Positions 23,032 to 57,567 of a stretch of 59,932 nucleotides of DNA are shown one piece after another. A model generated the notes under the pieces. It had not been told where the DNA came from. It searched no databases and saw nothing but the letters and a program-made list of their open reading frames with translations. The translations under genes were made by a program, and so were the position numbers. Numbering within the stretch: position 1 is the stretch's first letter; each line of letters opens with the position of its first letter. This DNA comes from a virus. Lineage: Duplodnaviria > Caudoviricetes. The stretch lies in IMG/VR virus record IMGVR_UViG_3300042560_001663, positions 1 through 59,932 of that record. One strand, given 5' to 3'.

Positions 23032-23040
23032 GCGACCTCT

Positions 23041-31526: not shown

Positions 31527-31531
31527 TTTTA

Positions 31532-32227: not shown

Positions 32228-32230
32228 TGC

Positions 32231-32255: not shown

Positions 32256-32259
32256 GTAT

Positions 32260-35254: not shown

Positions 35255-35258
35255 CTTT

Positions 35259-35280
35259 ACAAATACTTTTAGGTATTTAT
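35259..35280 (-). promoter_or_regulatory. Late promoter ATAAATA embedded in a leader hairpin
   Basis: ataaatac-ctaaaa-gtatttgt; near-identical to 32231-32255. Confidence 0.7.
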
Positions 35281-36388: not shown

Positions 36389-36417
36389 AGTTTAATGTGA
36401 AATGATACGATTGTCAA
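36389..36417 (-). promoter_or_regulatory. sigma70-type promoter TTGACA-17-TAAACT
   Basis: -35 at 36412-36417, -10 at 36389-36394, AGGAG and ATG of 36126..36365 downstream. Confidence 0.7.
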
Positions 36418-37663: not shown

Positions 37664-37777
37664 AAAATAGTTGAAGTGTGGTTTGTGTTGAGAGGCAACC
37701 TCTGTGCCTCATAAACTTATGATAGAACGGCACAGGGCAGTTTCAAGATGCTCTGTGCCAGTTCTGCAAGTGTCACA

Positions 37778-38347: not shown

Positions 38348-38389
38348 AGTGTCAGTAGTGGACATATGCAATATACACAAGATGAGAGG

Positions 38390-38560
38390 TCAATCAATAG
38401 GTAATGTGCCACTTGATTGACTGGCACAGTGCTGTTTGATATACTTTTGTGCCTGCAATGAAGTGTTTACAACATCAAGTTGCCGTCCATTGTGAATAAT
38501 CATCAGTTTCTTCCCAAAAGGAACCGCAGCATAATCACCTTTAATAAATCCTTCTTTCAT
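38390..38560 (-). CDS. Small hypothetical protein (56 aa)
   Basis: Not in track. MKEGFIKGDYAAVPFGKKLMIIHNGRQL...; ATGA overlap with helicase stop; its tail reads through the palindrome at 38406-38427. Confidence 0.6.
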   Translation of the reverse strand: MKEGFIKGDYAAVPFGKKLMIIHNGRQLDVVNTSLQAQKYIKQHCASQSSGTLPID

Positions 38561-39783
38561 CGTTTAATAGTAGAAATTGCTGGTTCTCCGTGTTGAAATA
38601 CAGTATCAACAACGTTCTGAATCTTCTTGGCAGTGCTGATACCAACCGAATTAAAAGTGGGAATCACCACAAGTCCATAAGATTTGTGATATTCTGATAG
38701 ATTGCCTGGTGTGATTGTCCCATTGCGAAGTCCTGCAGCATCTTTGTGATGTAATCTTACCACTCTTCCAATCGTTTGGCAGATACCGATTGCATCCATT
38801 GAACGCATAAAGATGACTGCTTCCAAACCTGAAACATTGATACCTTCAGACAGAATAGAATGATGAAGCAAAACAAACTTCTTAGAGTCATCCTTACTCC
38901 ATTCGTGCAGAGTATCAAAGAACTCTTCACGATTGACTTTCTTACCATCAATAATCGCACCAGTCTTAGATGTAATCACCATCCAAGAGTATCCACGTTG
39001 CTCAAGTTGAATACAGAAAGGAGTTTGTGACATCAAAGCAGTGATTTGTTTGGTTGCTTTGGCACATACAAGAACCTTAGAAACTGCTGCCTCATCAATA
39101 CTTTCCAGTAGATGATTACAGTCACGTTCAAACACATTGGTGCTGTCCAATGAAACTTGCTTGGCAATAATCTTTGGTGGAATGATATAACCTTCCCGAA
39201 CCATTCTTGGTGCAGGAACATTTGCAATGATGTTACCATAAACCTGAACATTGTTCATTCCAGGTTTCTTGGGTGTGGAAGAATACTTTGGAGTTGCAGT
39301 GTAGAAGTAACAACGTTCTGACTGTTCACTGAAGTATTCTACCGCAGGATAAAAGTTCTTCTGCACCGAATTGTGTGCTTCATCAAAGTGAATTGTATGA
39401 ACTTTGATGCCCGACTCCATCACCTTATGCAGAGAGTGATAGGTAGTGAAGATGAGTTTATGAGTTTTGGTATGAAACCACCATTTGAACAAAATATCGG
39501 AGTTTGTTGAGGATGTATGATGTGTCTCTCCCGAGTGACAATGATACACAGAAGCATTTGTGATGTGCTCCAGATACTCAGAAGAGAGTTGATTCGCAAG
39601 CAAAATTCGCGGAGCAACAACTACAACAGTCTGAGGAGTTTCTGATTCAAACTGAGAGATTGTATTTGCAATTCCTACAAGAGTCTTACCTGCACCTGTG
39701 GTTGCACAAATGATACCTTTCTTGTGTTCTTTCTGAGCATCACAGCACTCAATCTGATGTGGACGAAGTGAAACAGAAACCAT
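38557..39783 (-). CDS. Superfamily II helicase (ResIII/UvsW-like)
   Basis: LRPHQ, ATTGAGKT (I), FTTYHSL, FDEAH (II), TAT (III), LSEGINV (V), QTIGRVVR (VI). Confidence 0.9.
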   Translation of the reverse strand: MVSVSLRPHQIECCDAQKEHKKGIICATTGAGKTLVGIANTISQFESETPQTVVVVAPRILLANQLSSEYLEHITNASVYHCHSGETHHTSSTNSDILFKWWFHTKTHKLIFTTYHSLHKVMESGIKVHTIHFDEAHNSVQKNFYPAVEYFSEQSERCYFYTATPKYSSTPKKPGMNNVQVYGNIIANVPAPRMVREGYIIPPKIIAKQVSLDSTNVFERDCNHLLESIDEAAVSKVLVCAKATKQITALMSQTPFCIQLEQRGYSWMVITSKTGAIIDGKKVNREEFFDTLHEWSKDDSKKFVLLHHSILSEGINVSGLEAVIFMRSMDAIGICQTIGRVVRLHHKDAAGLRNGTITPGNLSEYHKSYGLVVIPTFNSVGISTAKKIQNVVDTVFQHGEPAISTIKR

Positions 39784-39857
39784 AAGGTAAGAATCAATGA
39801 AGTAATCATATCAAAAATCTGCTGCTGTGGCAAGTGAGTGTGCCAGTTGATAAAGTG

Positions 39858-41453
39858 TCACAGCATAATTAAGTGTGGTGCTGCTGTTAAAGATACCTCA
39901 ACATCTTCATACATTTTACCGAAACTTACCTTTTTACTTAAAAGATTTGAGGTTCCAGAACCTCCAACCTTCACAAATCCTCTCTTTGTGATTGCTCCAA
40001 AGATTGTAAAGAAGATTGCTTTTTTTAAAAATGTCCTAAAAGTTCTTCCACCAACAAAGAAGAAATAAGATAACAAAAGTGAGGTATAATGCTCATAAAC
40101 TCTGTTATTTGGAATTGCATCAACATTTGTTCTAAATCCACCTTCATTTTTAATCATTCTGATGACATTTTTTTGATACAATTCAAATCCACTTGCGTAT
40201 TGCATTTCTTCAAAAAATGGTTTCATAACTTTTTCTAATTCTTTAAATGTATGAAAACCTCTACTACTCAACAGTTGACTGCATTTTTTATATGATGAAA
40301 GTTTTTTAATTTCAGTAAAGTTGTTTCTTGCGGTTGTTCTATTTGTTCTATTCAGTTCACTTAAAATAATATCATCAAACACTCTTAGAAGTTTTATACT
40401 AAGCAATCTCATAATCTGATTATATCCAGAGTATTTTCTAAGAAATGGTTCTAATGACTTAGGTGCCATTCCAGCAACCCACGGAGTAGACGCAGATTTT
40501 GAAGCATCAATATAAAACTTTCCATTAAAACTACCAGATCCCATTGCTGGAAGAGGTTCAAGTCCAAAAATAGTATTATCAAACTCAGGATCTATTTTTT
40601 TATAGTTAAAGTCAAAAAATAGTTTCCACGTTGATGCAGATCCAGCATCTCTTACATCCCATTTATCATACTTAATATCAATTACATCTTCAATTATTTT
40701 CTCAACTTCAATTGGAGATTTTCCACCTAAAACAATTACTAATTGTGAATATGGATCAAGATTACTTTTAGGAACTTTGCCGATTTTTGAAATATCACCC
40801 GCAAGTTTTACTGAAGTTGTAGAATCTCTTCCTTTTGGCATTTTATGTGAGATTGGAATCAAATCACCTGTCTTTAGATACTTCTTAATTAAACCAGCAT
40901 AAGTTTTATCTTTAAATTTGAAATAATTGAGGAGAATAGTTTCATCTTTTTTAGGTTTTATAATAGTATCATTAAAATCTTTTTTGATTTCATTAACTTT
41001 ACTATGATTGACAATATAAAAATCAGCAGGAGTTAAATTCGTTACACTTGCTCCAGCAGATAATGCATCCGCAAATACTTTTGAAAGTCTAGTAAGGCAC
41101 TTATTTTTGATAGTGTCTACAAATACACTATCTTGTCCGTATATTCTATAATCTTTTCCCGTTTGTAGAAAACTAGAGTTAAAAAGACTCACCATTTGAT
41201 TATAAATTGCTTCTAAATGCACATCACCTTTTCCTTTCTCAAAACTATACTTAGATTTAAGAACAGAAAAATTAAAGTTTGGTTCTAAATGAGATTTATA
41301 TTCTTGAGATAATTGTGTTATCTTAAAATCTTTAAAGATGTTTATCCACTCTTCTTTGTGTTGCTCCGAATTAGTTTTATAATCAGGATTTTTTAGAAAA
41401 TATGCAAATGCCAAACACGCAAGATTTTCTTTTGGATCTGCTACTGCTGCCAT
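39858..41453 (-). CDS. 531-aa late protein with divergent PD-(D/E)xK-like motif
   Basis: KENLACL...LTPADFYIV...LIPISHK; CTAAATA at 41468-41474 upstream; AT-richer than neighbours. Confidence 0.5.
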   Translation of the reverse strand: MAAVADPKENLACLAFAYFLKNPDYKTNSEQHKEEWINIFKDFKITQLSQEYKSHLEPNFNFSVLKSKYSFEKGKGDVHLEAIYNQMVSLFNSSFLQTGKDYRIYGQDSVFVDTIKNKCLTRLSKVFADALSAGASVTNLTPADFYIVNHSKVNEIKKDFNDTIIKPKKDETILLNYFKFKDKTYAGLIKKYLKTGDLIPISHKMPKGRDSTTSVKLAGDISKIGKVPKSNLDPYSQLVIVLGGKSPIEVEKIIEDVIDIKYDKWDVRDAGSASTWKLFFDFNYKKIDPEFDNTIFGLEPLPAMGSGSFNGKFYIDASKSASTPWVAGMAPKSLEPFLRKYSGYNQIMRLLSIKLLRVFDDIILSELNRTNRTTARNNFTEIKKLSSYKKCSQLLSSRGFHTFKELEKVMKPFFEEMQYASGFELYQKNVIRMIKNEGGFRTNVDAIPNNRVYEHYTSLLLSYFFFVGGRTFRTFLKKAIFFTIFGAITKRGFVKVGGSGTSNLLSKKVSFGKMYEDVEVSLTAAPHLIML

Positions 41454-41958: not shown

Positions 41959-42510
41959 TTGGAGTTTAATTCTAAAGTCATCATAAACAAAAAAGAGGAC
42001 TTGTAAAGTCCTCGTGTGCCAGTAATTCAACCGCCCTTTTCTTTCAAACTCCGTACAAGATACTCAGTAAATGCTTCCATCTTCTGTGGTGCAACTTGTG
42101 AAATGTTATAATCAATCGCATCTTTAAGTGCAGTCATTTCATTCCATTCTGTATCTGTAAGTTTTTCTGCGTGTTTGGATGAAAATGACATAGTTTTTTT
42201 GCTCCCAGAAATATCTTGAAATCCTAACACTATTTAATCAAGTTTGGAGGTTGCTTAAGATTGTCTTTAGAGTGTTGTTACAAAACTTAATCATTAAAGA
42301 ATGAACCAAAACTACCACGACTGTCTGGTTTTCTGCTCTCCAACATATCCATCAGTTCTTCAATTTTCTTGCATTGTTCTAAATCAAGTAGAAGTTTGGA
42401 AAGTTGTTGAACTACCAGTGGTTTTTCATTTGTTGCAGCACTTTTAATTGCAGCACGAAGGTGTGATTCTGCTTCTAAAAGATGATCCAGTGTTTGTTTT
42501 GATAGTGCCA

Positions 42511-43080
42511 TTAAACTTTCCTCAAAAGATAAGAACCGTCACCTCTATCAACCCACTCAACTTTATCACCTTCTTTTAGATTTGCTGCCTCAAGAAGATC
42601 CTCAGGAAACTGAACAAAATAATTATCAACGCCCTCTTCAATTATTTGTTGAACAGGAAGTTGCCACTTCACTACTTTATCTTCTTTTGATTCCCAAAAA
42701 TCATTCCAAGCACCTTGACATTCAGGTGAGGCATCATTTTTATCACAGGATAAAGATTCGTTTGCAATTTGATATTCTAAATCACTGTGTCCCCAAGGAC
42801 GCATACCATCATCTTTTCCTTCATAATACTCTCTTTCACTCAGGACTTCTTTGACATAATTATCATATGCCTCAATATGTCCTTTACCATTACCATTCAG
42901 CAGTGCAAGAAGTTCACAGCAATATTGAGTGTTATGCTTGAAATAATTATACTGCTCCTCTACAACACCTTTAATGACATCATAGATTTCTTGTGGTGTT
43001 GCTTCTGCCGATGAAATGGCATCGTGCATCCAATTTTCAAGATTTTCAAGTGAATACTTTTTGTAATCAAAGTCAGTCAT
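42511..43080 (-). CDS. Protein with C-terminal AbrB/MazE-type DNA-binding domain
   Basis: YFVQFPEDLLEAANLKEGDKVEWVDRGDGSYLLRKV matches the swapped-hairpin pattern. Confidence 0.7.
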   Translation of the reverse strand: MTDFDYKKYSLENLENWMHDAISSAEATPQEIYDVIKGVVEEQYNYFKHNTQYCCELLALLNGNGKGHIEAYDNYVKEVLSEREYYEGKDDGMRPWGHSDLEYQIANESLSCDKNDASPECQGAWNDFWESKEDKVVKWQLPVQQIIEEGVDNYFVQFPEDLLEAANLKEGDKVEWVDRGDGSYLLRKV

Positions 43081-44178
43081 AATTAAAACCAAGAACCTTT
43101 GAGTGATTTGTGAGATTGCTTCATTGCCTTATAGAGTTTTTTAATCTCTTGATAGGCATCTTCAGCAGTCATCTTACCACCGATTGCCATATTTGTCAAG
43201 TAAGAGACGTGATGTGAAAAGTTATTCAGATTGTTGATTGTAGCAATATCCAGAAAACTCATATCAGCATCTGGGTTCATTGGAGGAGTTGGATACAAAA
43301 ACTCCTCTTTCACTTGTTTTGATGTTGTCATTTATTACCAAGATTAAATTGATTTATAGTGTAGGGTTCTGCTGCTAAAATATCAATACGAGCATCAACT
43401 GCATCAATATGATTTGAGAGTTCATATAAGCAGTTGCTTGTTTCTATATTTTCTTCTTCCAGATTTTTAATTCGTTCTTCTAGTTTTTCAATTAGGTCAA
43501 GAAGATTTTGATTATTTTCCATAATTTTTATAATAATTGTTATATGCCATAAATCTTGAAACTGATGGGATTACATTGAGACTTTCACAACATCTCAAGT
43601 AAGATATAAACTCATACCAAGGTGCTGTGGGGTCAGTATCACTCATACTTTCTCAAAACAAACACTATTGAACTTACCATAAACACCACGAAGATGCAGT
43701 TTTGTGTGCCAAGTGTGAATTTCTACTCTTTCCACATAGTAGGTGTCTCCTTCAAAGAGAACACCAACTGGATTGTCATTATTGCCCCATCTTACCTGTT
43801 CTTCAATGCTTCCAGTATATCTTACTTTGTCCCCTGATTTGAAGTTTTCCATAGGATTTACGGATTACCTTTTCTATTTAACTTTTGCATTTCTAGCAAA
43901 GTTTCTAATGGAATCCAAGCAGGATTTTCCTTGTTAAATTGAACTTGCACTTCAGTTATTTTTTGTTTTAGACTTTGACTCCACACTTCTCTTGTTTGTT
44001 TTACGTTGCTGAATGGGTTCTCCATCACGATAAAAGATTTTGATTTTCTTCTTATCTAGTTTATATCTGGTGAGGTGTTTTTGCAAGTCATAATCATCAC
44101 GAAACCAACACACTCTGTTCTCTTCAGTGACTTCTAACCGAACGGGCATTGAAGGATAGGGAAACAGTTGAGGTTCAA

Positions 44179-44640
44179 TCATTCCTGGGATCTCCATTCT
44201 TTTCTCATTCTAACATATTCAGAATCATTGGCAACCCTGTCCCGTATGTTCTTAAATACCATCGCAGCCATTGCTTTAACCGATGTAAGTGCGTCTTTTT
44301 CTTGAGGTAATACGGAACCAGACGAATCGTATTTTTGTCCACTCTTATGATTCGCATACCTTCTGGACCTAGTGAATCCCATTTCAAGGAACTTCCGTGC
44401 CATATCCATTCCAATGAAATCTTTCTGTCGTTTGTAATCACAATACATTTCGTATATCTTATGAGAAGATTTACGAGCAGTATCCACATCTTTGAACCTC
44501 CAGTGGCGGCAAATGTCGTCAGTGTAAGGTCTAACGAGGAGCACACCTTGCTCCCCACGACCGATACGATAAAGTTTTTTCGTATTTAGATTGGTGAAAT
44601 CAAGGGTTTTGTAATCAAGAGAGTAGTCAAACTCCTTCAT
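44179..44640 (-). CDS. DUF4385-family protein
   Basis: YRIGRGEQGVLLV.PY...HWRFK...DMARKFLEMGFTRSRRYANH. Confidence 0.75.
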   Translation of the reverse strand: MKEFDYSLDYKTLDFTNLNTKKLYRIGRGEQGVLLVRPYTDDICRHWRFKDVDTARKSSHKIYEMYCDYKRQKDFIGMDMARKFLEMGFTRSRRYANHKSGQKYDSSGSVLPQEKDALTSVKAMAAMVFKNIRDRVANDSEYVRMRKEWRSQE

Positions 44641-45031
44641 CGTTGTCCAGTGATGTCCTCATACCCCATTAGTTTACCATAAGAAAAATGAAGACGCAAG
44701 GTGGGCCAATCTTCCCACTGTCCTTCCCAAGTTGCTGGATAAACCTGAATATATTTCGTCAAATACCAGGGACGAACTTTACCGTGATTGCCATTAGGAA
44801 TCCACCGAAAATTGAGGAGGGTTCTTTTGTCATCATATCCCTCATCACCTTCTTTGAGTTGTACAAAATCAGCAGTATGTGAGTAATCAATGGTATACAA
44901 ATGTCCATCAGGTGATAACCAATAATGTGACATTGTTCCACCAATACCATCTTCAATGTCTTTTGTTTGAAGTTCAGTATCAGTGAAGTGTTCTCCAAGA
45001 TTATATGAAGAACGAACATAGTCAAACATAC
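44637..45031 (-). CDS. Hypothetical phage protein (MFDYVRS...LQTKDI)
   Basis: Motif typical of phage hypotheticals; ATGA coupling downstream. Confidence 0.65.
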
Positions 45032-45037
45032 CCACGA

Positions 45038-45313
45038 TTACTTTCCTCCGTGTTTTGCTATTGTTGCCTTCCAAAAATCAGTAGTCATTTGATTTGACCC
45101 TTCTATTTTAGCAACAACCACACCATCAATCAAGGCAATCAACGTAGGAGTTGCAACAACACCACAATCCATTGCAAACTGAGTCCATTGATTATGAACC
45201 TTTGCATTGGTAAGAGTCACAACTTTTTCCCAACCTTCTACCTTTTTAAGTTGAGTTTCTGCATAAAGACAAGGACGGCAACCTTGTTGAATAAACAAAT
45301 GGATTTCAGTCAT
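45038..45313 (-). CDS. Thioredoxin/glutaredoxin-like protein (start revised to MTEIH)
   Basis: GCRPC CxxC and GVVATPTLI cis-Pro motif. Confidence 0.75.
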   Translation of the reverse strand: MTEIHLFIQQGCRPCLYAETQLKKVEGWEKVVTLTNAKVHNQWTQFAMDCGVVATPTLIALIDGVVVAKIEGSNQMTTDFWKATIAKHGGK

Positions 45314-45903
45314 CAGTCCCACCACCAGCAGAGATTTGTAAGTGTATTTAAGAATTGTTCGTGATAAACAGTGCGACTTGGATTTGGTTTCCCGTCTTTC
45401 ATATCTTGAAGATACTGAATAATACCACGAACCACTGGAGTGTCTTGAAAGTATTCGTGCATTCTGTAACAATCAAACTTCTCATTGTATTCAATGAAGT
45501 CGTGTAATGGGTTCATATTACGACGATATCCCCAGATGAATACATCTTCATCTTTGATACCTTCCTTGTTGATGATTTCTAATGGATAAAACTTTTGTCC
45601 ATCTTTGTCTTCAACTGCATCTTCTTCTCTTTCTTCTGTATCAAACTTAAAGTGAAGTCCATCATAATACTTATCGTGTAACTCTTCATCAGGTGCGACA
45701 CGAACTTTCTCATTCTTTGCCAGAATATATTCCATACGACCCTTTGCATCTTCGTCAGTCAAACGAAACACGATGTTGCCGATGTAGTAATCCACAGGGC
45801 CACCATACATATTCTCTGACCTTCTTTTACGAAATGAAAGATGTAGTATCTCAAATCCAGGGTCTTCGTTTTCAGTTTCAACAAGTCCTTGTGTAATACT
45901 CAT
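45313..45903 (-). CDS. Hypothetical protein (196 aa)
   Basis: ORF track; coupled start/stop on both sides. Confidence 0.7.
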   Translation of the reverse strand: MSITQGLVETENEDPGFEILHLSFRKRRSENMYGGPVDYYIGNIVFRLTDEDAKGRMEYILAKNEKVRVAPDEELHDKYYDGLHFKFDTEEREEDAVEDKDGQKFYPLEIINKEGIKDEDVFIWGYRRNMNPLHDFIEYNEKFDCYRMHEYFQDTPVVRGIIQYLQDMKDGKPNPSRTVYHEQFLNTLTNLCWWWD

Positions 45904-46259
45904 TTGAACCCCTTTGCCTCTTGTTTTCTATCTAGGACTTCAATGTGACTTAGAAAGTTTCCATTACGGTTCCACCATAAAGATTTTGCATCTTCATAGT
46001 TGTCAAATACTTGATAAGTGCCGTCATTATAAACTACCTTATAATCGTGAAGAAGATAAGGTTCATCTGATGTTTGCTTAAAGATTTTCATTTGTTGATT
46101 GTTGTAAGAAGAACCCATAACCAAACCTCTAATACTATAAGAACAATGATTTCAACAAAAACTGGTGGAAGTGTCATTTGGGGTTCTTTTATATGAGGGT
46201 ATTATACGACAAAAAGCACCTAATTTCAAGGGCCCCCTGTTCCAGTTTGTCAAGGGTCC

Positions 46260-46955
46260 TTATGTTACTCTAACTCTACCCATCTCCCAACCATCACCGG
46301 GACATTCTACACTTCTTTTATTAATTTGCCCATCATTCCACCATTTTGTTCCTCTTACTTTTTGAGATAATATTTTAATTGCTTCTTTTTGTTTTTCACT
46401 TTGAGGTTTTCCTTTTTTTGACTGACTTATTTTTATTTTAGTTTCTTCACTAACAATTTTATTCAAGTTCCATTTTCTTATTTTTTCTTTATGCTCTTCT
46501 GAAAGTTTTCTTCCAATATTCCACTTATTTCCTATTTTTGATTTTTTTAGTTTTTCTATAGTTTGTTTGGAATGTTTTTTAACTCTATGTTTTTCAAGTA
46601 TTTGTTTATGTTTTTCAGAAAGAGTTTTACCTTTATGAATTTTACTCATCTTTTGTTTAGTTTCATCAGTCATTCTCAATCCAGTAGAACCTTCACCACC
46701 ATCAGTTTTATTGCGAAGAATACCAGTTCCCAAATCAATTCTTCCAAGCACATCAATCATATAGATTTCGTGCTTGAATGCGTCTTCTTCCGTTAGATTT
46801 TGTTTAAGAAAAATTATCCTTGATTTATCAGTTGGTTTTCCAACTTCACCCTTAACTTTCTTATATGCTCTATTTTCTTTACCTTTGCCTATGTAATAGG
46901 GAGTTCCATCCTCACGCAAATACGCATAAGTATAAAATCTATATGGATTTACCAT
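46260..46955 (-). mobile_element. Free-standing GIY-YIG-type homing endonuclease with NUMOD3 repeats
   Basis: FYTYAYLREDGTPYYIGKG...R...E...LRN.TDGGEG; repeated (M/L/H)SEETKxKIS...KG motifs; C-terminal KWWNDG...PGDGW.MGR. Confidence 0.8.
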
Positions 46956-46964
46956 AGTTCTACT

Positions 46965-47044
46965 CTTAAACTAACCGCATTAGTATTTATATTACAAAGG
47001 AGGAGATTTCTCTCCTCCCACCTTACAGATTGCGGTCAGTTAAG
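46965..47044 (-). promoter_or_regulatory. Leader switch: outer stem + GAAA hairpin + TATAAATA late promoter
   Basis: Arms 47031-47044 / 46965-46979; inner hairpin 46999-47018; TATAAATA 46984-46991. Confidence 0.75.
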
Positions 47045-48842
47045 GCATTAGTATTTAGATGAACAATCCAAGAAATAAACATATCGTGCAGAATTATCAG
47101 GAGCATATCGTATTACATTACAACGATTATCATACTTATCAACCACTTCAAATGATGGTTCCAATGGTTTACCACCCGAACCAAAGTAAGAAAGTGCAAT
47201 TAAAATAACAATGAAGACGACAGAGGCACCAACAAATACACCAACACCACGGAGCAACTCTTTGAGAGCATACTTATCTTCGGGAGTCATTTTCATCATT
47301 CTTTTACCTCAACTGTGGGAACATCAATCCATTTACCATTTTCAAGGGATTGAAGTTTATATAACATACGAGTATAAGTAATCTCCTTGTCTCTAAAAGG
47401 TGGAATCACTCTCAACCAGTGTAGAAACTTCGGCATATCTTCGCAAGTTTCAACTCCTTTGATTTTTGTTTCAGTTTTTAGGTATCGTAGTTTCATAATC
47501 AATCATCCCACGGAGCTTTGCGTTGAAGTAGTTTAGCAAGATTTTCGTTGTATTGTGGTGGTTCATTCAATCGTTCTACAAGAGCATCAAAGTCCTTTGC
47601 AGGTAACACAATGCGTTCTGGTTTTGCACCTTTACCCCAGAACTTCTCAAACTCCCATTGATAGTTCATATCCAACCATCCACCATTTAGAGAATGCCAA
47701 AACTCTCCCCAGATGTGATAATCATCAAAACGAAATCCTTCGTGAGACATCAAACGATACCACCACCAAAATGGTGTATAACTAAGAAACCTATTGCCTA
47801 TAATAAGTTTATGGAAGTTCATTTCTTTGTCCAAGAATAAACATACATTTGCATCCAACCATCATTTAGTTCTGCCCACATTGCGTGAGGAAGTTTATAA
47901 GAATACTTTTTATCTCTCATCCAATAGGTGTATGCTTCCCAGGCATTTCCTACACCCTGCCAACCCCAAATAAAGTTTCTCCATTTGTCATTATCATACA
48001 CCCATTCATTATCAGTATCAAAAATATTAAATTTAAAATGAGGTTTGAAATCGTATTCAAAAAAATGTTTGTTATACTGTTTGCGAGTGTAGTTTTTGTA
48101 TCTTTGACGGAGATTGATAAGAGTGTTAATCATACAGTCTCATCCCATTCCTCATATCTGGTATTGATTTTACCAGCATTATTGAAAATATTCAAGTGTC
48201 CTATGCGACCATCCTCAAAATAGAATGCCATCCAAACGTGCTCACCTTCATCCATCACCTCATAATGATAGGATTTGATGTTGTCAAGTAGAAACTCGTC
48301 TGGGTTGAATAGTGTTTTATCGTCCATTATTTTGCCTCCCAATACTTACCATCAGGGCCACAAAGAAACTCATACTCCCTCTCATAAGCACAACGATAAC
48401 CATTAGTCATTTGGGACACAAGGTTCAAATCATTAGGACGAAAACACAAATCCCAGTTATCATTTTTTCTAAGAATGTTTTCTACCCAATTCATACGATA
48501 ATACTTACAATCTTTACAGAGTTTAGTCATTTTTCAATTTCTTTTTAAGTTGATATTCACTCAATTTTTCACCATCATAATTGAAAAATGGTTTCTGTTC
48601 CGTGCAAATTTGAGATTTGAAATAAGTCTTTCCAGACCTTTGTGGAAACTCACCTTTAACAAATTCTTGGACATAGTTAATTTCCCCCACACAATTAGAT
48701 TGAAGATCACAACCCTCAAAGTATTTTGGGTTTTCATTCATAAACTTCAAAGTTGCATCTACCAACCTTGTATCTGGTTTAACTGGTTCTGTTGAAACTA
48801 ATTGAAATCCAAATCGGTTAAGTATTTTGTTAAGTAAGTTAA

Positions 48843-49043
48843 TCATTTTTCAAGTTCCTCCGCAAGTTCATAAAGCATTCTAGCATCAACTACCATATCT
48901 TCACCATCACCAAAGTGATAGTATTGAAACTCATTCACAATCTCACGAACAGCAGTCGCAAGTGCTTCTCTCATATCATCTGTGGGTTCTACAATCAGTT
49001 CCCCACAAAATGCTTTCCAGATTGTTTGTGCTTTATTGTTCAT
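48843..49043 (-). CDS. Small helical protein, dispersed paralog family
   Basis: A..I......LA.A.RE.VN......L...A.ELE pattern shared with 49578, 54378, 54738, 57568. Confidence 0.7.
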   Translation of the reverse strand: MNNKAQTIWKAFCGELIVEPTDDMREALATAVREIVNEFQYYHFGDGEDMVVDARMLYELAEELEK

Positions 49044-49577
49044 CTTTTAAAAATAGTGCGTCAAGTCGTTCCCTATACAATCTTTCAAAATGTAATGTTA
49101 GTAAGTATTCATCATAAGTAATAGTCATATGATATTTACCTTTCAAAGTAAGAATAGTTTCCATATCTTTAACCTCAGTATGAGGCAAATTTAAAAACTC
49201 TTGATAGGTTATTAGTTTATCTTTATTTTCCTGAGGAAAATCAGGTTCTTGTGGAAAACCAAAATTAGTCATCTTTTCTTCTCAATCAATCTCTTCAATT
49301 TGAATAATGTCTCCAAGACGTTCCTCTCCTTTAACTAATTCCCCCTGTTTAGTGAAATAAAATTCAAGAAACTCATACGCATATGTATCTCCAAAATGAG
49401 TAATAAACTTAATATAACCTTCGTGTGGATTTCTCTTATTCTGTCTAAAATTCACACTAACTTTCTTATCAACAAACTTTGAGAGGTCAATTTGAGAAGT
49501 CATCAGGTGTCTGTGTGTATGAGAGTATTATAAGGCAAAAAGGGGTCTTGTGGAGACCCCCTGTGCCAGTTTAAGTG

Positions 49578-49745
49578 TCATTCTGCCTCCAGTTCGTCAG
49601 CAATATCAAGAATGTTTTTTTCGGTAATACCAATATATTTCAATTGATTTACCACTTCACGAAGAGTGGCAGCAAGAGTTTCATTACCACGAAACTTTGG
49701 TTTCCAGTAAGTATCAAGGATTGCTTGTATCTGGTGTTCAGTCAT
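49578..49745 (-). CDS. Small helical protein, dispersed paralog family (55 aa)
   Basis: Not in track. MTEHQIQAILDTYWKPKFRGNETLAATLREVVNQLKYIGITEKNILDIADELEAE; sits alone between two repeat elements. Confidence 0.75.
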   Translation of the reverse strand: MTEHQIQAILDTYWKPKFRGNETLAATLREVVNQLKYIGITEKNILDIADELEAE

Positions 49746-51019
49746 TAGAAAGTTCCTCTGTGTGTATGAGAGTATTATAGGGCATCAAGGGGCATCTGTG
49801 AAGTGCCTCTGTACAAGTTCTTCAAGTGTTTTCTATTCTCAATACAAACCATCCCTTCTTTGTCTGTTTTTTCTTTTCCTATCCATAAAATATTCAAGAA
49901 CACCAAATCCCATAGAAATAATAATATATGGAAGTAGGATTATCACAATAAATTCAATCATCAGGTGTCTCAACTATAATTGAAGTGTAAATGAGTTTGC
50001 CAAATACCAAAAGATTTCTCTCTCAACATATAAGCAATCACATCAGGAAGAAATCGTGTGTATTTGTCAAGAAATTCCCGTTCTTCAAGTTCTTCTGTTC
50101 CTTGTAGATAAAAATCAATATCTACAAACTTCTCCCATCTTTTCTGGAAATAATCTTCTGGATATGATGGAGAGTTATTGCGGGAGATTTGTAGGAAGAT
50201 AGTTCTACCTTCACCAGTCCCATAATAATCAATCACATAATACTTGTAGAATGGTTCAGTCATAATCCAATGTTTCTCACATATTCGTGTGCTGTTACTA
50301 TTTTTTGAAGGTCATTAACTTGACTTTTAAGTTCTTCAACTTCTTGTTTAAGTTCCCAAATATAATCCTTCAAGTTCCACTCAACATCACCAATCAGTTG
50401 AAATAGTTCTTCAAGTGTGAGTTCGTGATTGCGAGTTTCACTCCACTTTGCTCGTTCAGGTCTTTCACTCATAGTCATTATCCAATAAAGAGATTTGTAG
50501 AAATGTCGTAAAAGTATTGAGGTGGTTCGTCTGGTTTCTTTTCTGGTTCTGGTTGATAAGAACTTTGTGGTTTTTGTTGAGTTTTTAGATACTCTTTGAC
50601 TTCTTCCACACTCATTTCGTGAAGTTTTGGTTGTTCAGTCATTATTCTTCCTCACTCGTTCAAGAAACTCATCTGCTTGGTTACGAAGACCTTCAATCAA
50701 TCCCTCAATATCCTCAATCGCAATATTATTATACTCCCGATTGAGATATTCACAACGAATAGCATCAATCATACTTTCCATTGCAATAATCTGTTGATGC
50801 TCTGGTGTGATTGGTGTGCCGTGAGGAAGTCCAGAAGTTTCAAAATTGTGAAAGTCATTATATCGTTGCAGAATACGATTACTCTTCTCACGACGTTCTG
50901 CTTCCTCAAACATCGCATCAGGATAAGGTTCGCAGTCCATAATGTTCCTTTGATTTCTTCTATTATACAACAAAAAAGGGCACCTGTGAAGTGCCCGTGT
51001 TCCAGTTTGTTAGGTGTCC

Positions 51020-51721
51020 TTATGATATTCTAACTCTTTGAGAAGTGTCTATACCTCGTGCTCTTTGATATCCTGTTAAAGTTCCAGGATGAGTAATAAA
51101 TCCAGTTTCTAAACACATCCACTTTTGAGAATTTGTAATTTTAGCATTCTCACTTCTTTGTTCTTTACTTAACGCAAATATACCAACTCCAAGTTCTTTT
51201 GCTTTTTTACCACCTATTCCTGTTTTACCTCCTTTACTGCTTGCTTTTTTCTTTTCTTCTTCGGGCATAGAAAAAAATCCAACACCAAGTTCTTTTGTTC
51301 TTTGACCTCCTTTTTTACCTCCAATTTTTCCAGCATTTTTTGAAAATTGAATTCTCTCTTCTTTTGAATATTTGAAGAAACCTCTTCTTAATTCATAATT
51401 CATCTTACCAACTTCTCTTTTTACATCAAGAGAAACCATACCACCACAATTTTCATTCAAACACCATTTATCGGTATTAAAAAATGGTTTGATTAATCTT
51501 TCTTCAACTTTATTTGCTTCCAACCAACCTTCATCGGTATAATCAAACATCTCTAATATTTGCTTCTTTGGAGTATAAAGTTCCCAACACCATTTGTTTG
51601 TTTTTGGAGAACCCCAATAATCATCATTAAAATATTTTTCCTTATGAACTCCATAATAGTAATATGGAACTTCTTCAAAAGTAATTTTATACAAGTATAT
51701 TCTTGGACTTTGTGAAGTCAT
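51020..51721 (-). mobile_element. Free-standing GIY-YIG-like homing endonuclease
   Basis: IYLYKITF...YYYGVHK...YWGS...E..LI...CLNEN catalytic-domain pattern; repeated GGK...KELGVG.F..S.EE modules. Confidence 0.7.
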
Positions 51722-51729
51722 CGTAATCT

Positions 51730-51810
51730 TGTTAGAACGGCATTATTATTTATAATAGAAAAGGTGCCCGAAAGCACCTAATCTGTCCGTAGAGAATTGC
51801 CGTTCCAACA
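51730..51810 (-). promoter_or_regulatory. Leader switch: outer stem + UUCG hairpin + TATAAATA late promoter
   Basis: Arms 51798-51810 / 51730-51742 (13 bp, one G-U); inner hairpin 51762-51779; TATAAATA 51747-51754. Confidence 0.75.
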
Positions 51811-52782
51811 GACATTTTTATTTATCAGTATCTTCTTTATTCTGTTTTTCTTTGAGTTTTTTTAATTGTTCTCTGCCATAATTCGTTAATTCGTGTTTTT
51901 TGTTGCGGAGTTCTTCTACTTCTTCTGGATTGAGTAGAAACCCATCAGGAATGTGACCGTATTCTTCAATCATTGTTGTTTATAAAAAAATAAATGTATC
52001 CAACGATTAATCCAATAGGTAGCAGTTACAAGAAACAACCATAATCCGATAAGACCAAAAAATAGAATAAACTCTTTAAGTTGTTCATTAGACATTTTTT
52101 TCACCCATATCGTTCATTTTGTTCCATAGCATATTCTTTTTGATATTCCAGTTCCCTTTCAAGATACTCAATTTGTTCTTTGAGTTCTTTATTTTGCAGA
52201 TAGAGTTCCTCCAAGTGTGATGTGAGTTTATATGCGTTAATTTCGCACATTTCATAGACACCATCGGTTGTAAGGTCTCCAAAGATAGTTCTCCAATCGT
52301 CGGTTCTGTCAGTCATAATATGTATTACAATTCCCATAATTTAAATAATACCAGAACAGTTCTCTCATTCTATCATCGTCTGTAAATCCGTCAAGATGGT
52401 TCCACATATGATTTCTCCAACTATACACACAATACTCAAAAAGATGGATTGATGTATAGATGTTCCACTTTTTCCAAGTGTCATTGTTCATCGCAGTTTC
52501 CTTTTTATTTTGGTAAGGCAATCATTAAAACCTTCTACACTACACTCAACATAAGCATTTTGACTTCCTGCTGCTGATTGTTCTTTCGGTAACCATTCTT
52601 CAATCTGTTCTACAAGTGTTTCAATGTTCTGCCCTGATGGATTGTTGTTGGTAAAGATTTCATCCCACCAATCAGCAATAATCTCATAAAGAGTAGTGGG
52701 TTTTGGTTTTTCTACTTTTTGATACTTTTCTCCACGAAAATAGATACAATCTCCGTCTTTGAGAATAACAGAGGGGTCAATT

Positions 52783-53376
52783 TCAGTCATACTTTCCACC
52801 TTTTACTTCATTAAACCAAAGTCCTTCAAGAAGACGACGAGTTTCACCATCAATAATCTGCACCAACTTCACACGACTAACATCAACAGTAATATCTCCC
52901 TTTCTCTTATACCAAATAACAGAAGTTGGATATTCCAGACGATAATAAATCTCATCATTATAAGAGACAACCTCACCCTCAACAGTATCTTCAAGGTTCA
53001 TTCTTGGTTGAGATTTATCATTATAATCATCTTCTCTTACCTTCTCTTTGTATGCAAAATGAAAACCTGCTTGGAAACCTTGCCACCTCATTTCATCATA
53101 CTCGGAATCAGTTTCCAATTCAGGATATTGCCCCCACCAATCTTTGTATGCTTCTTCTACTGGTGATTTTGTTTTTTCCAGTTCTTCCAGAAGGGAAAGT
53201 TTGGATTTGAGCATTTTGATTTCTTGTTTTAGAAGTTCAATTTCTTTATTGGAATTCATTTGTTTAAGATAAGGAGTAGCATCCATCACACCATCTTTGA
53301 TTGCTTGTCTAAAAGCATTACGCAATCCATCGGCAACTTCTTCGGGATGCTGTGGTTTTGGTTGAAATTCAGTCAT
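52783..53376 (-). CDS. Hypothetical protein (197 aa) with coiled coil
   Basis: ORF track; overlapping start/stop with neighbours. Confidence 0.65.
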   Translation of the reverse strand: MTEFQPKPQHPEEVADGLRNAFRQAIKDGVMDATPYLKQMNSNKEIELLKQEIKMLKSKLSLLEELEKTKSPVEEAYKDWWGQYPELETDSEYDEMRWQGFQAGFHFAYKEKVREDDYNDKSQPRMNLEDTVEGEVVSYNDEIYYRLEYPTSVIWYKRKGDITVDVSRVKLVQIIDGETRRLLEGLWFNEVKGGKYD

Positions 53377-54377
53377 TATTCGTCAGTCCTACTTCAAGTC
53401 CTTCCATTCTTCCCATATTATACCCCACAACAAACGCAGAGTGCAACCACTTGTGCATCAAATCCTGACGGGTCTTCACATCTTCTACTTCTGCATCACC
53501 ATAGAACCACTCGGATCGTAAGGAAAAACCACCATCAAGGTCATTAAACCATTCCTGAAATGCGTCTTCAATTGTATCATCAAAGTCCCAATCAGCAGTA
53601 GGATGGTTAGTCATTTTAAAATAACCTCCGTGCCTAAATTAACACAATACATAATCATATAGAAACCGAATATAGCAAGAAGAGTAAGTGGTTTGTTTCT
53701 TAAATGTTGTGCCAGGAAAAGATTACCAACAATAAGATAGAGATCTGATTTACTCATAATGTATCAAAAGGTTGTTGTGGATCTTTGTGCCAACTTCTAT
53801 TGTAAGTAAGCCATTCTTCTTTTTGATGAGTCATCTGTGCCATCCAGTGTCTTCCGTCTTCATCAATCGCATCAAGATAATGAATACGGGTCTTTGGATC
53901 AATCACTCGTGTGATGTGTGTGAATTTTACTTCGTTAGTCATTTTTAACTCCCACTATGTTCATAAGATGCGTGTTCATATCCCTCACTATACCCTCTAT
54001 CATATCCATCGTTGTATCCATCTTCGTGCATTGTTAGGGCAAACTTCAAGAGTTGTTCTTCCCAACAATCCCAGTAATTAGATTGTGTCCCATCATCCTT
54101 TTCTCCCACAAATTCATCAAATCCACAAGTTTTAGCAAGTTTAAGGATTTCTTCGTTAGTCATTTCACAAAATCCCCAACCACAGGAATAGGACCACAAA
54201 TCTCATTAACAAAACTTTTTGTATTATTTTTGAGTGTTTGACGACACTCCAAGTTCTTATTGTATGTTTGTTGAAAAAGTGTTCGTTGTTGTTGCTCACT
54301 ATAAGTGATAATAGCACCAGCAACGATTACAATAAAAAATACAGACAAAACTGCCCAATCAATTTCATTAAAGTTTT

Positions 54378-54554
54378 TCATAGGTTTTCAATCTCCTCAC
54401 ACAATTCCAACACATCAGCACACATAATCACACCAGGGCTTTGTTGGAGTTGGTTGATAACTTCACGGAGAGCAGCAGCAACTCCGTCCTGTGGATAGTT
54501 GTAAGTATCCTCTGCTTTGTATGCTTCCATAATCCGTTGTGCTCTTTCAGTCAT
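54378..54554 (-). CDS. Small helical protein, dispersed paralog family (58 aa)
   Basis: Not in track. MTERAQRIMEAYKAEDTYNYPQDGVAAALREVINQLQQSPGVIMCADVLELCEEIENL. Confidence 0.75.
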   Translation of the reverse strand: MTERAQRIMEAYKAEDTYNYPQDGVAAALREVINQLQQSPGVIMCADVLELCEEIENL

Positions 54555-54737
54555 CGTTCATCATCCTCCACAGGAAACCCATCCATCTCTTTTAGCTTCT
54601 TTACTATACCAATAATCAAAATACCACACTCTAAAATCACAACGATAATATTGAACTAAACCAAACTCATTTGCATCCTCTTTTGTTGGACTATGAGTGT
54701 AGATGAGGTCTTTGGTGTCTAATACATTTTTAGTCAT

Positions 54738-54944
54738 TTAGAGTGCCTCCACATCATAAGAAATACAATTTAGTTCATCAGCAATATGAGTAAGCCAAGG
54801 TTCATCTTCAAGAATTCCACTTCTATGAATATTGGAAGAAATCACACGAATAGCATTACCAAGTGCTTTCTTCATATCCTCTGTGGGTTCATCTTTAAGA
54901 TTTGCTTTGAATGTTTCCCAGATTTGGTATGCTTGGTTAGTCAT
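54738..54944 (-). CDS. Small helical protein, dispersed paralog family
   Basis: MTNQAYQIWETF...EPTEDMKKALGNAIR closely matches MNNKAQTIWKAF...EPTDDMREALATAVR of 48843..49043. Confidence 0.7.
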   Translation of the reverse strand: MTNQAYQIWETFKANLKDEPTEDMKKALGNAIRVISSNIHRSGILEDEPWLTHIADELNCISYDVEAL

Positions 54945-56873
54945 TTCAGTTGTCCTCTCTCAAACGAATACTACCTTCAATCTCACCTCGCATATCATAA
55001 AAATACTCTTTGGCAGTAGAAAGGCACCAGTTATCATAGTCCTTTTGTGTTGGATTTCCTTCGGTTTCTTGAAGCCGAAATTGTTCCCACATTTCCAAGA
55101 ACTCATCTACGGAAAGTGTGTATTCCAGAGAAACATATGCTACTTTGGGAATTATGTGATTAGACATAGAAGGAAAATTTTGGACTGCGATGAGAAGGTC
55201 GTTTCCAGTAAGCATAAGAGGTGTCTGTGTGTATGAGAGTATTATAAGGCACTCACAGGGTCTGTGGTGAGGTCTTGTGACGGTTTAGAAAGTGTCTTCG
55301 TATTTCAGTTTTAAAACAAATATTACAATCAGGGATATGATACTTACTGAATGCCAAATTTGTTCATCAGTCATAATAAACATCCTCCTCATAAGCAACA
55401 TAGTCAGTTTGAAGATGGCAGAAGAAATCTCCACCACTATCTTCTGGGTGTGTCATAGTATAACACCATTCATCAAAGATTTCTCCTACCCACCACCAGC
55501 CAACTTGGATTTTCTCAAAGAAGTTCATAGGACGATTGTAGAGTTTCGTCATCGGGCACCTTCTTTAATCATTTTACGCATCGTTGTTTCAAAAATAATG
55601 TCTTTTTCCAGTTCGTATGGTGATGCTACTTGGAGATAGGTTTGATACTGATGCTCGTTGAGGTCTTTGGAAGGAATGCAACCATTATAAGAGATGATTT
55701 TTTGGATTGCTTTTTCAATTGGTTCTTCATAAACCCCTTTGAAGATAAACATCAGTTATTCTTCATCCTCCTCATCATCACTCCCCCAGTCAATCTCAAC
55801 GGTTTCAAACTGCTCTACATTAGTGTAAGGCATAGGATTTGCAGGTCCTCCCATCTCATAATGGATTTTATCAAACAATTCTCCAAGCACTAAACTCTCA
55901 AATGCTTCCTGGTCTGGATAATCCTCCCAGTCCTCAAACATTTCAGTTGTGGGAGCAACTGTGAGAGTTCGGGTGTAAGTTACTGTGACTGCTTTGAGTT
56001 GGATTTTAGTCATTCTTCATCCTCAACAGGGAACATAGCATCATACTCTTCATCAGTTAGTGTGAGATACTGGACATCAGCATCTTGATGTTCTTCGGCA
56101 TACATCAGTTGGTAATGTGCAAAGGAACTTTCAGAAGTGCTGGCATATTCTACAAGACCATCAACAAGGCAGAGGTAGTTCATTTCAGTTCAGAATAATT
56201 GCTAACTCGGTGTTGTTGTCTTTGTATGAAGAACTTACGATGTCTTGAACTTCTATATCATAAACATCCTCAAAACCAATACCAGATGTTTTAACTACGA
56301 TAGTGTCATCAGGAACCTCAAGATTGACGAGAGCATCAATTAGTTGTTTTTTAGTGAGTGACATCAGTTTCTTTGTGTATGAGAGTATTATAAGGCAAAA
56401 AGGGCACCTGTGGAGATGCCCTGTGCCAGTTCTTCAAGTGTCCTATTTAAGTTCATCTTCTTGTCTTTCAATTTCAAAAGTTTCGTTGAGAAACTCAATT
56501 GCGTATTTTCCTACTACGAATGCATCTTTATCTTCAAAGAACCTAGTGCCGATGGTTCTCATATCATAACCTTCTTTGTGTTTATCAAAGAAAGCAATCA
56601 CATAGCAGTTTTCACTACCATCAGTGTTCTCATACCAACTAACCAGTTCATATTTGTTGTTGTATTTACTGAAACGAAATTCAATCTTACGAAATCTCAT
56701 TGTTCTCCAACATAGTTTTGATTTGTTTGAGATCTTCTACCCTTTGTTTAGCAATGTCATACTCCTCACAATACCAATCAATGTTATTGTTCTCATAATT
56801 GGTTTCCTCCCTAATGTCCCATTCAAGACATTGTAGATGTCCTTCTTGATCGTTGATGAAGTAGTTGAGAGTT

Positions 56874-57149
56874 TCAATGAGTGACATTTTCAGGAGCAGG
56901 AGGAGGGGGAACAGGTGGAAGTTGTGTAGGTTGTGGTGCGACTTGTGGAGTTTGAGTGGGAAGTGCTATAGGTTGTGGAACGACTTGTGGTTGTTGTGTT
57001 TCTTCAAGTTGTTTTTCAAGTTGTTGAACTTTTTCTTCAAGTTGTGGAGTAGTTGATTGATTGTCTTGTGAAAGTTTATATCCAGCAGCCCCAGCAGCAA
57101 AGATACTTGCAAGTGCCGCACACACAGAAACAGTCTTAGAAAAACTCAT
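56874..57149 (-). CDS. Membrane-anchored Pro/Gln-rich protein
   Basis: N-terminal hydrophobic helix, short coiled coil, P/Q-rich tail. Confidence 0.65.
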   Translation of the reverse strand: MSFSKTVSVCAALASIFAAGAAGYKLSQDNQSTTPQLEEKVQQLEKQLEETQQPQVVPQPIALPTQTPQVAPQPTQLPPVPPPPAPENVTH

Positions 57150-57567
57150 TTTGGATCAGCAAGTTTGTAGGGGAACTCTTTGCCCGACAACTCATCATAC
57201 AGCAGTCGGGCAAAGATGATGTGGGGTCTTGTGCCAGTTTCAATTGCGGACGATGTGGCAACAGTCCACATAATATCAAGGTTTTTTTTATCAGGTAAGG
57301 GTTTCATCCAACTCATTCAAACGATCAAAGTTCCAAGTTCTTTCAATCAATCCAATATCAAATCCAAACTTATAAGCCCAGAAGAGAATACTTAAGGTGC
57401 TTCCACTTCCAGACTTGATTTGTAGATAAGGCCAAGATGGATAATCATTCCAACTTACAGATACTTGAAGCAAACTCCAACGATTGATGTTTAAGATTTG
57501 CACATAGTATTCGTGTCCAAAATCTTCACGATGATTATACTTAATCAAAAATTTGCGTTTATTAAAT

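Follow-up and report, generated by a model that had tools for sequence, protein, structure and literature searches.

Two homing-endonuclease-type genes of a freshwater T4-like cyanophage share a 3′ junction with a putative terminator/promoter repeat

Introduction

Free-standing homing endonucleases and promoter–terminator cassettes have so far been treated as separate drivers of mosaicism in T4-like phages. Here we describe a locus at which the two are physically joined, in that an endonuclease cassette often carries a copy of a terminator/promoter repeat at its 3′ end. The locus lies in IMG/VR record IMGVR_UViG_3300042560_001663, a 59.9-kb sequence of estimated completeness 27% that was analysed whole (59,932 nucleotides; hereafter the window) and that comes from a freshwater T4-like, Kyanoviridae-like cyanophage. 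Two homing endonuclease genes (HEGs) of this window, HEG1 and HEG2, end in a shared tract of 40 nt that runs from their last codons into the repeat. We consider it probable that this tract is the 3′ junction of a cassette, that the HEG2-type tail was copied to HEG1 and that a particular spelling of the repeat core, TGGAAC, is inherited with the cassettes.

Several parts of such a cassette, namely the leader, the splitting of genes by endonuclease genes and PeSL-type repeats, are already in print, each separately. Hairpins that sequester the ribosome-binding site and hold a nested late promoter precede I-TevI, I-TevII, I-TevIII, segB and mobE in T-even phages and Aeh1 (Edgell et al. 2010, PMC2988022), and in cyanophage-like ‘fractured genes’ free-standing endonucleases are likewise preceded by TATAAATA hairpins (Dassa et al. 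2009, PMC2677866). Insertion of free-standing endonuclease genes has left genes in pieces, as in Aeh1 nrdA/mobE, T4 gene 39/60 with mobA and phage 25 gene 43, and seg and mob genes embed promoters for the genes downstream of them (PMC2988022). PeSL cassettes of T4-type phages are units of a terminator hairpin and a promoter (PMC2839356, from 2010; Comeau et al. 2014, PMC4122927); in the available portions of these two papers homing endonucleases figure as a separate mechanism, no HEG-linked variant is described and cyanophages go unmentioned. Our literature search, which took in neither supplements nor subscription journals, found no paper linking homing-endonuclease cassettes to a PeSL-like repeat variant and no account of the 3′ end of one HEG family being grafted repeatedly onto another.

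A tract shared by two dissimilar genes

HEG1 (46260..46955, minus strand) encodes 231 residues ending in GRVRVT and is a probable free-standing GIY-YIG/NUMOD3-type homing endonuclease gene by its profile matches, which include Pfam NUMOD3 (E 8e-12, above the cut-off), PHROG 314 ‘homing endonuclease’ (E 2.6e-14), a GIY-YIG domain protein in the PDB (E 0.006) and TIGR01453 (E 6.5e-4, below the cut-off); its N-terminal motif reads YTYAY...YYIGKG. HEG2 (51020..51721, minus strand) is a second free-standing, endonuclease-like gene of 233 residues ending in IDTSQRVRIS. Its sole family match is PHROG 314 (E 5.6e-8), with no endonuclease-type match in Pfam or NCBIfam and no sequence match in the PDB; an IYxY...YYYG motif lies in its N-terminal part, it contains internal repeats, and its C-terminal domain is conserved. 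An AlphaFold2 model of HEG2 built from a 17-sequence alignment has a mean pLDDT of 53.8 and is confident at residues ~190–233 only, the N-terminus lying below 50; a Foldseek search of the PDB with this model returned nothing at E 0.001 or better, its top rows being U-box and rubredoxin-like small domains.

The first copy of the shared tract (46238..46277, minus strand) comprises the last five codons of HEG1, TAA, a box that we call box 1 (here GGACCC), a spacer and the core AACTGGAACA; the second (50998..51037, minus strand) comprises the last five codons of HEG2, TAA, box 1 as GGACAC, a spacer and the same core. Read on the coding strand, the order in both is AGAGTTAGA, six bases, TAA, GGAC(C/A)C, a 6-nt spacer ending in ACA, and AACTGGAACA. 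Position by position, 35 of the 40 bases are identical, and a repeat search extends the pair slightly, to 86% over 44 nt (46234–46277 against 50994–51037, family D13), with the next best copy, at 56418, reaching just 64%. Similarity starts at AGAGTTAGA, within the last five codons (RVRVT in HEG1, RVRIS in HEG2), and upstream of it the alignment of the two genes is near random. The proteins show no likeness either, with a best BLASTP E-value of 0.36, and hhalign finds no significant relation between the two family alignments (probability 0.15%). A preliminary description of this DNA had reported about 40 nt of similarity at both gene ends in otherwise divergent proteins; its positions, on the minus strand, were right and both statements hold.

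Origin of the HEG1 3′ end

We read all gene ends in 80 fetched loci with HEG1 relatives, of which 273 had been found in viral contigs, and in the 32 loci with HEG2 relatives. An R-x-R-[VILM]-x tail before the stop was present in 41 of 49 distinct HEG2-family ends, usually as IDTSKR-x-R-I-S, against 5 of 76 distinct HEG1-family ends, so that the tail is native to the HEG2 family; the usual HEG1-family end is ...ECPGDGW-x-x-GR followed by 0–3 residues. The repeat directly follows 33 of the 49 HEG2-family ends and adjoins 15 of the 76 HEG1-family ends. In the HEG2 model the R-x-R tail is predicted to form the last strand of the sole confidently folded part.

The five HEG1-family exceptions fall into two kinds. 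The window, L010 (93% identical) and L161 carry 4–6 tail codons alone, and L063 and L085 are chimeras whose last 35–50 residues are HEG2-type. These five argue for repeated grafting: HEG1-type genes appear to have received HEG2-type 3′ ends on several occasions, the crossovers lying at varying depths. The L063 chimera joins HEG1 residues 1–194 to HEG2 residues 199–233, that is, a HEG1-type N-terminal nuclease/repeat region to a HEG2-type C-terminal domain.

How the window acquired its tail is best seen beside its relatives. At the empty HEG1 site, found in L202, L204, L205 and L122, the upstream gene ends in AAATGA, and both an endonuclease gene and the repeat are absent. L011, which is syntenic with the window across several genes, has a HEG1 gene at this fixed site (75% identical at the protein level) that ends in GRMKK and is followed by no repeat; its stop codon and the next 50 nt are those of the empty site. 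The window is laid out identically except that, after GGTAGA, a 95-nt block (46180..46274, minus strand) comprising four tail codons, the stop TAA and the complete repeat down to the leader replaces 6 nt of L011, and AAATGA, the old end and stop of the empty site and of the L011-type HEG1, is stranded downstream of the inserted repeat (46174..46179, minus strand). Among all fetched loci the HEG2-type 3′ end of L008 matches the block best (from AGAGTTAGA onward, 86% over 79 nt), and of the 16 distinct non-self matches listed, 10 are HEG2-linked. Because the block matches HEG2-type 3′ ends best, tail and repeat were most simply copied from a HEG2-type cassette; loss in L011 is a less parsimonious alternative to gain in the window.

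These comparisons also bear on the proposal, made in the preliminary description, that the endonuclease genes move as cassettes docked at the repeat. In its favour, the window and L010 have the upstream gene, HEG1 and the repeat in common and diverge after it, so that the same HEG1 and repeat lie beside different downstream genes. HEG1 did not, however, dock at an existing repeat, because both the empty site and the filled L011 allele lack one.

Chance, or mere convergent conservation of a basic C-terminal peptide, could have been offered for the coding part of the tract, which taken alone is only moderately unusual: the match there is limited to 13 of the last 18 coding bases, and when the last 18 coding bases of 202 minus-strand open reading frames (ORFs) of the window were compared, 9 of 20,301 pairs matched at least this well (≥13/18), the highest-scoring pairs listed being low-complexity acidic tails. 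Yet the similarity continues past the stop codon through 22 non-coding bases, the 95-nt block is missing from the syntenic L011, and the top matches to the block, over 62–79 nt, are HEG2-type ends. The L011 comparison and these matches contradict chance, to which we give practically no credence, and on the evidence from relatives we regard the tract as homologous.

Among cultured Synechococcus phages, HEG1-family genes (S-SRM01 62515–63246 and the matches in B3 and B23) are annotated ‘translation initiation factor 2’, a label probably due to NUMOD3-like repeats; six places in S-SRM01 match HEG1. For HEG2, the last ~53 residues of S-PM2p181 (L250; S-PM2 137109–137738), an ORF just downstream of the characterised endonuclease F-CphI between psbA and psbD, are 53% identical to the C-terminal domain.

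A gene split at the HEG2 site

HEG2 and its repeat separate two pieces of what relatives encode as a single ORF. The N-terminal piece (51818..51973, minus strand; 51 residues) matches residues 10–40 of the 137-residue reference ORF (L130 730–1143) with its residues 14–44, and the C-terminal piece (50635..50940, minus strand; 101 residues), which is restarted behind the repeat and belongs to PHROG 32546, of unknown function, matches residues 41–137 with its residues 4–101 at 91%; the ORFs flanking HEG2 are therefore collinear with this one ORF.

A survey of this site began from 80 loci with the downstream piece, of which 16 duplicates and 17 without an N-terminal match were dropped. A single intact ORF without a repeat was found in 36 of the 47 informative loci. 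The other 11 are split: two by an endonuclease cassette (HEG2-type in L169, HEG1-type in L161), four by the repeat alone (L135, L152, L163 and L191, picked out by eye) and five by other inserts. Here, too, docking at a repeat fails, as the cassette sits inside a coding sequence whose usual unoccupied state, like the empty HEG1 site, is repeat-less. In the repeat-only alleles, box 1 supplies the stop of the first piece, and the −10 element of the repeat, its leader and an ATG would restart the second; these alleles thereby point to the probable role of the repeat at the 3′ end of the cassette. The window repeat at HEG2 is near-identical to that of L152, which lacks a HEG, apart from C or A in the core.

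One insertion site is thus occupied by a HEG2-type gene in the window and in L169 and by a HEG1-type gene in L161, the junctions on both sides being the same. This bears out the earlier suggestion of cassettes with shared ends, and fits an exchange of ORFs between such ends. Before the HEG2 leader stands a degenerate box 1. We rejected the idea that such a remnant, seen at the split-gene site, generally forms the left end of the cassette, as other leaders have unrelated sequence before TAAATA. The split point itself is a length-variable linker, at which relatives carry in-frame inserts of 0–186 nt, the repeat alone, other ORFs or endonuclease genes.

As in the genes in pieces treated in the available text of PMC2988022, a HEG cassette lies within a gene that is contiguous in relatives, and the signals for the downstream piece travel with the insert. 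The HEG2 site differs from what is described there in that the restart signals form a separate, genome-wide repeat behind the ORF and not a promoter inside the endonuclease coding region, in that the interrupted gene, a small ORF of unknown function, is split at a linker that varies in length, and in that repeat-only split alleles also exist.

The putative terminator/promoter repeat

The window holds 22 minus-strand copies of the repeat, spread from 21.5 to 57.3 kb. Read as transcribed, each consists of box 1, (G/T)G(G/T)ACAC, a spacer of ~6 nt, the core AACTGGCACA, ~29 nt and a −10-like TATAAT or TATTCT. The core is spelled TGGCAC in 17 copies, GTCAC in two, TTGTAC in one and TGGAAC in two, and both TGGAAC copies stand behind the two endonuclease genes; the preliminary count of 25 elements was not reproduced, whereas the restriction of TGGAAC to these two stood (2/22). 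An additional exact AACTGGAACA, at 38302–38311, has no repeat architecture around it.

Copies at 42–57 kb have a GC hairpin and a T-run, that is, a terminator, within the 29 nt, followed by a leader of 20–25 nt and the next ATG; copies at 21–40 kb lack the hairpin, and in them box 1 together with the core makes up a partial palindrome. These are two subtypes (21546–39862, for example 21581, 24958 and 38405, and 42015–57239) with the same distance of ~29 nt from core to −10; the hairpin-less one combines the palindrome TGTG(C/A)CA-N10-TGGCACA with TATTCT-like −10 boxes, the other a GC terminator hairpin with TATAAT. Palindrome and fixed spacing suggest a site for a dimeric factor and not a −35 element. 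Box 1 commonly holds the in-frame stop of the upstream gene (GAC-ACY-TRA), as in L152 (2380–2530), L163, L135 and L191 and at 49562–49585 and 56422–56445 of the window, and a repeat dropped into a reading frame ends that frame cleanly, leaving ...EDT tails.

Behind HEG1 the repeat extends from box 1 to the −10 TATAAT at 46201–46206 (46201..46259, minus strand), with a degenerate terminator hairpin whose fold is no better than that of shuffles (z +0.44). Behind HEG2 (50962..51019, minus strand) it comprises box 1, the core, a GC hairpin with T-run and the −10 TATAAT (50962–50967), then a leader and the ATG (50938–50940) of the downstream gene half; its fold (z −1.45) is likewise not better than shuffles. 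An Rfam scan of 44–53 kb (E up to 1) yielded a single match, isrD on the HEG2 repeat, at 22.9 bits and so below the gathering score of 37, which we treated as chance.

The repeat shares with PeSL cassettes, as these are presented in the portions of the two papers available, a repeated intergenic unit with a terminator-like hairpin and a −10 TATAAT, many copies flanking small ORFs in a variable early region, and indels and gene replacements among relatives that are edged at the unit. The last of these is seen here in the 95-nt block that sets the window apart from L011, in the divergence of L010 and in the repeat-only splits, and the 22 copies agree with the multiplicity of PeSLs. Unlike them, it has no sigma-70-type −35 at 17 nt from the −10; where PeSLs have the order stem-loop, −35, 17 nt and −10, the −35 position is here taken up by the 3′ half of the hairpin. 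The conserved GGACAC box and the core of 10 nt stand ~29 nt upstream of the −10 and are partly palindromic, one subtype (21–40 kb) is hairpin-less and box 1 often gives the stop of the upstream gene, all of which departs from the PeSLs of those texts. Since the −35 element is lacking, we do not file the repeat as a PeSL; it appears to resemble one in function but is none by sequence definition. PeSLs are further marked by mini-circles that arise when their copies recombine.

The leader at the 5′ end of the cassette

The HEG1 leader (46956..47057, minus strand) consists of a TAAATA box with the stop of the upstream gene, arm 1, a GC hairpin with T-run, TATAAATA (46984–46991), arm 2 and the ribosome site; the HEG2 leader (51722..51824, minus strand) has the same architecture, with TATAAATA at 51747–51754. 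Within 80 nt of the start, TATAAATA occurs in 67 of 77 distinct HEG1-type upstream regions and in 31 of 33 HEG2-type ones. It lies between the arms, and the 3′ arm covers the region of the ribosome site. In an RNAalifold consensus of 71 leaders the arms pair, 11 of 12 pairs having compensatory change, and 93.7% of cells in the arms are paired compared with 65% in shuffles and 30–40% with slid partners. Predicted folding energies of the full leaders are −34.5 and −35.5 kcal/mol (z −5.7 and −6.5), and RNAs from the late promoter are unstructured. These predicted folds mark the leader, with its masked ribosome site and nested late promoter, as the known late-only lock of T4-type phages.

In the parts of PMC2988022 at hand, the T-even and Aeh1 hairpins likewise have TATAAATA between complementary motifs upstream of the endonuclease start and a ribosome site masked in the long transcript and free in the late one. 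Unlike those hairpins as described there, the loop of the HEG leaders also holds a terminator hairpin, a second TAAATA box is present, and one leader serves two endonuclease families without detectable sequence relation; the parallel, moreover, concerns the 5′ end and not the 3′ junction. The leader is thus not new, but that it is shared shows that both genes are built into one kind of cassette.

The second TAAATA box lies upstream of arm 1 and the terminator, and in the HEG1 leader 13 nt there (47045–47057) are identical to the late-promoter region (46979–46991). A putative separate RNA of ~55–60 nt, complementary to the endonuclease leader, could start at this box.

The TGGAAC allele across relatives

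In the window and the fetched IMG/VR loci, a repeat was scored where the box was accompanied by a core with no more than one mismatch (position 7 aside) and by a −10 agreeing in at least five of six positions. The scan gave 127 distinct copies, counted over loci that had been fetched around HEGs and their neighbours and that are related, not independent; two copies were reassigned to the HEG-linked class, one behind a HEG1 gene with its stop inside box 1 and one behind an HNH/NUMOD gene missed by the query. Position 7 was A in 23 of 44 HEG-linked copies and in 3 of 83 other repeats; within the right-half type without GCC the counts were 22 of 38 and 3 of 39. TGGCAC is still found in 18 of the 44 HEG-linked repeats (about 40%). 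Since every other core position is at least 90% conserved in HEG-linked and other repeats alike, TGGAAC is a specific allele and not decay. Its link to HEG cassettes is real, and TGGAAC is rare at repeats without endonuclease genes; had it been common there, this would have spoken against the preliminary description.

At the split-gene site the repeat-only alleles L135, L152, L163 and L191 read TGGCAC and the HEG-filled window, L169 and L161 read TGGAAC. We ruled out a strict covariation of C or A in the core with GCC or GTYG after the T-run, as the repeat-only L152 and L163 have C with GTTG. The cultured phage S-SRM01 has a gene, gp091 (annotated hypothetical), with the leader, an R-x-R tail (RRRLS before the stop) and TGGAAC. 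In L145 (~1100–1860) an HNH-type endonuclease gene with NUMOD-like repeats is directly followed by the repeat, with the core TGGTAC.

In T4, the immunity of a genome to its own free-standing endonucleases is attributed to sequence polymorphism close to the insertion site. The preliminary description had suggested that the TGGAAC variant might resist cleavage; in such a model the endonucleases would cut TGGCAC repeats, the cassette would copy itself in and the genes would spread, shuffling early genes as they went. The base-specific link to HEGs (23/44 versus 3/83, with the other core positions conserved), the split of four repeat-only TGGCAC alleles from three HEG-filled TGGAAC alleles at one site, the near-restriction of the difference between the L152 and window repeats to that one base, and the degenerate box 1 before the HEG2 leader, as though the cassette had entered a repeat, are all as this model would have it. 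But the window retains 17 TGGCAC copies, and HEG-bearing loci often have consensus repeats within a few kilobases, so that a generic target would mean self-cutting; this makes generic targeting of the repeat unlikely. The repeat is, furthermore, absent from the empty HEG1 site and from the filled L011, the commonest HEG-free state of the HEG2 site is the intact, repeat-less ORF, and 18 of the 44 HEG-linked repeats read TGGCAC; we regard the model as unlikely. Rather improbable, too, is a narrower form in which the repeat is a portable landing pad, with particular TGGCAC copies being cut, repair installing the gene upstream and the change of C to A blocking recutting. Were it true, one selfish family could colonise many sites and drag early genes along, linking homing to PeSL-type shuffling.

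The base might alternatively be a regulatory or structural tuning favoured beside a late-transcribed selfish gene, with no role in cleavage: the extra A residues 5′ of the hairpin may pair with the U-run and strengthen termination, or binding of a putative factor at the AACTGGCACA core may be altered. That a single specific base is changed while the rest of the core is kept speaks for an element still under selection. In predicted folds (56380–56445 and 49520–49585) the consensus core GGCA pairs with UGCC after the U-run as an outer stem; HEG-linked copies are mostly (38/44) of the other right-half type, without GCC, and in the minimum-energy fold predicted for the HEG2 copy the core GGAA pairs with the 3′ side of the hairpin, in the U-run region. 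However, among repeats of this right-half type that are not HEG-linked, 36 of 39 retain C, so that the right half alone cannot explain the A; the extra pairing is weak, and the HEG-linked folds are those that do not better shuffles. Tuning of this kind is, in our judgement, about as unlikely as cleavage resistance.

A further reading is that TGGAAC is a neutral mark of the repeat beside an ancestral HEG2, spread by co-conversion as a hitch-hiker, and that the two copies of this genome became alike through conversion between their loci, which lie 4.7 kb apart. Taken together, these two processes are a serious possibility, although we would not assume them. The left half of the repeat follows the gene and the right half follows the site (window versus L152), and the HEG1 block was, by its best matches, copied from a HEG2-type end. 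By base count the HEG1 tract of the window agrees with the HEG2 tract of the window at 35 of 40 positions and with its L010 orthologue, which reads TGGCAC, at 32 of 40, a difference that is not significant. Against a purely neutral mark, A-type copies have many spacers, including the generic TTGAAG (L045, S-SRM01), which means that the base outlived the turnover of its neighbours or arose repeatedly. The pattern fits hitch-hiking of the left half of the repeat with the cassette, and the persistence of A on many different spacers leaves room for selection on TGGAAC.

A proposed modular cassette

The account we favour combines these results as follows. The shared 40 nt would form the 3′ junction of a modular cassette that carries homing-endonuclease genes in freshwater T4-like cyanophages and would comprise, in order, a leader of ~100 nt, the ORF, the tail codons R-V-R-x-x with TAA and the left half of the PeSL-like terminator/early-promoter repeat. 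In the leader, the TAAATA box would stop the upstream gene and the upstream arm would pair with the region of the ribosome site, with the terminator hairpin and the TATAAATA late promoter between the arms. A HEG2-family ORF would typically end in IDTSKR-x-R-x-x and TAA and pass straight into the repeat (GGACAC, spacer, core AACTGG-C/A-ACA, hairpin, TATAAT), which probably ends HEG transcription and restarts expression downstream. The selfish gene may thereby be tolerated between or inside early genes at little cost. HEG1, from a family ending in GW-x-x-GR-x-x, would have received, in the lineage of the window, the 95-nt block from a HEG2-type 3′ end into its last codons, and RVRVT, the repeat and TGGAAC would have come with this block. 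Cassettes probably exchanged it by recombination or gene conversion, the repeat and the common leader serving as portable homology, and TGGAAC would be a specific repeat allele inherited with HEG cassettes.

Several points weigh against this account. The direction of the 95-nt difference, gain or loss, rests on parsimony (the usual HEG1 ending and the stranded stop). The repeat is frequent at the junction, not obligatory, as 16 of 49 HEG2-family and 61 of 76 HEG1-family ends have none adjoining. That HEG2 is an endonuclease is suggested by one PHROG match, its mobility pattern and its leader, and the model of its N-terminus is poor. For the allele, a Fisher test of 23/44 against 3/83 gives p 2.4e-10, which overstates the evidence as the copies are related, and among six site-matched groups only one has a clean contrast of C without a HEG and A with one; of the others, two have other core variants in the HEG-linked copy, two have C or a third-party variant in both and one has A in both.

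A repeat copy at its 3′ end would explain how the cassette can lie within a gene, or between early genes, and leave the genes downstream unsilenced, and the carried repeat also gives it homology to dozens of places in the genome. If TGGAAC were an immunity mark, it would show how a selfish gene spreads to many sites.

Genomic setting

At the protein level the closest cultured relatives of the window are the freshwater Synechococcus myoviruses S-SRM01 (Kyanoviridae), B3 and B23; a near-DNA search of 44–53 kb against GenBank phages gave three short matches only and no close cultured relative. The window codes for a T4-type baseplate wedge protein, a cyanophage-style ferredoxin-family gene, a DNA methyltransferase and helicase pieces, and from ~20 to 58 kb almost all genes are small and on the minus strand. 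Adjoining the baseplate wedge gene is an ORF of 4047 residues (3641–15784) with many internal repeats (repeat families D9–D18), presumably a giant fibre or baseplate-associated protein.

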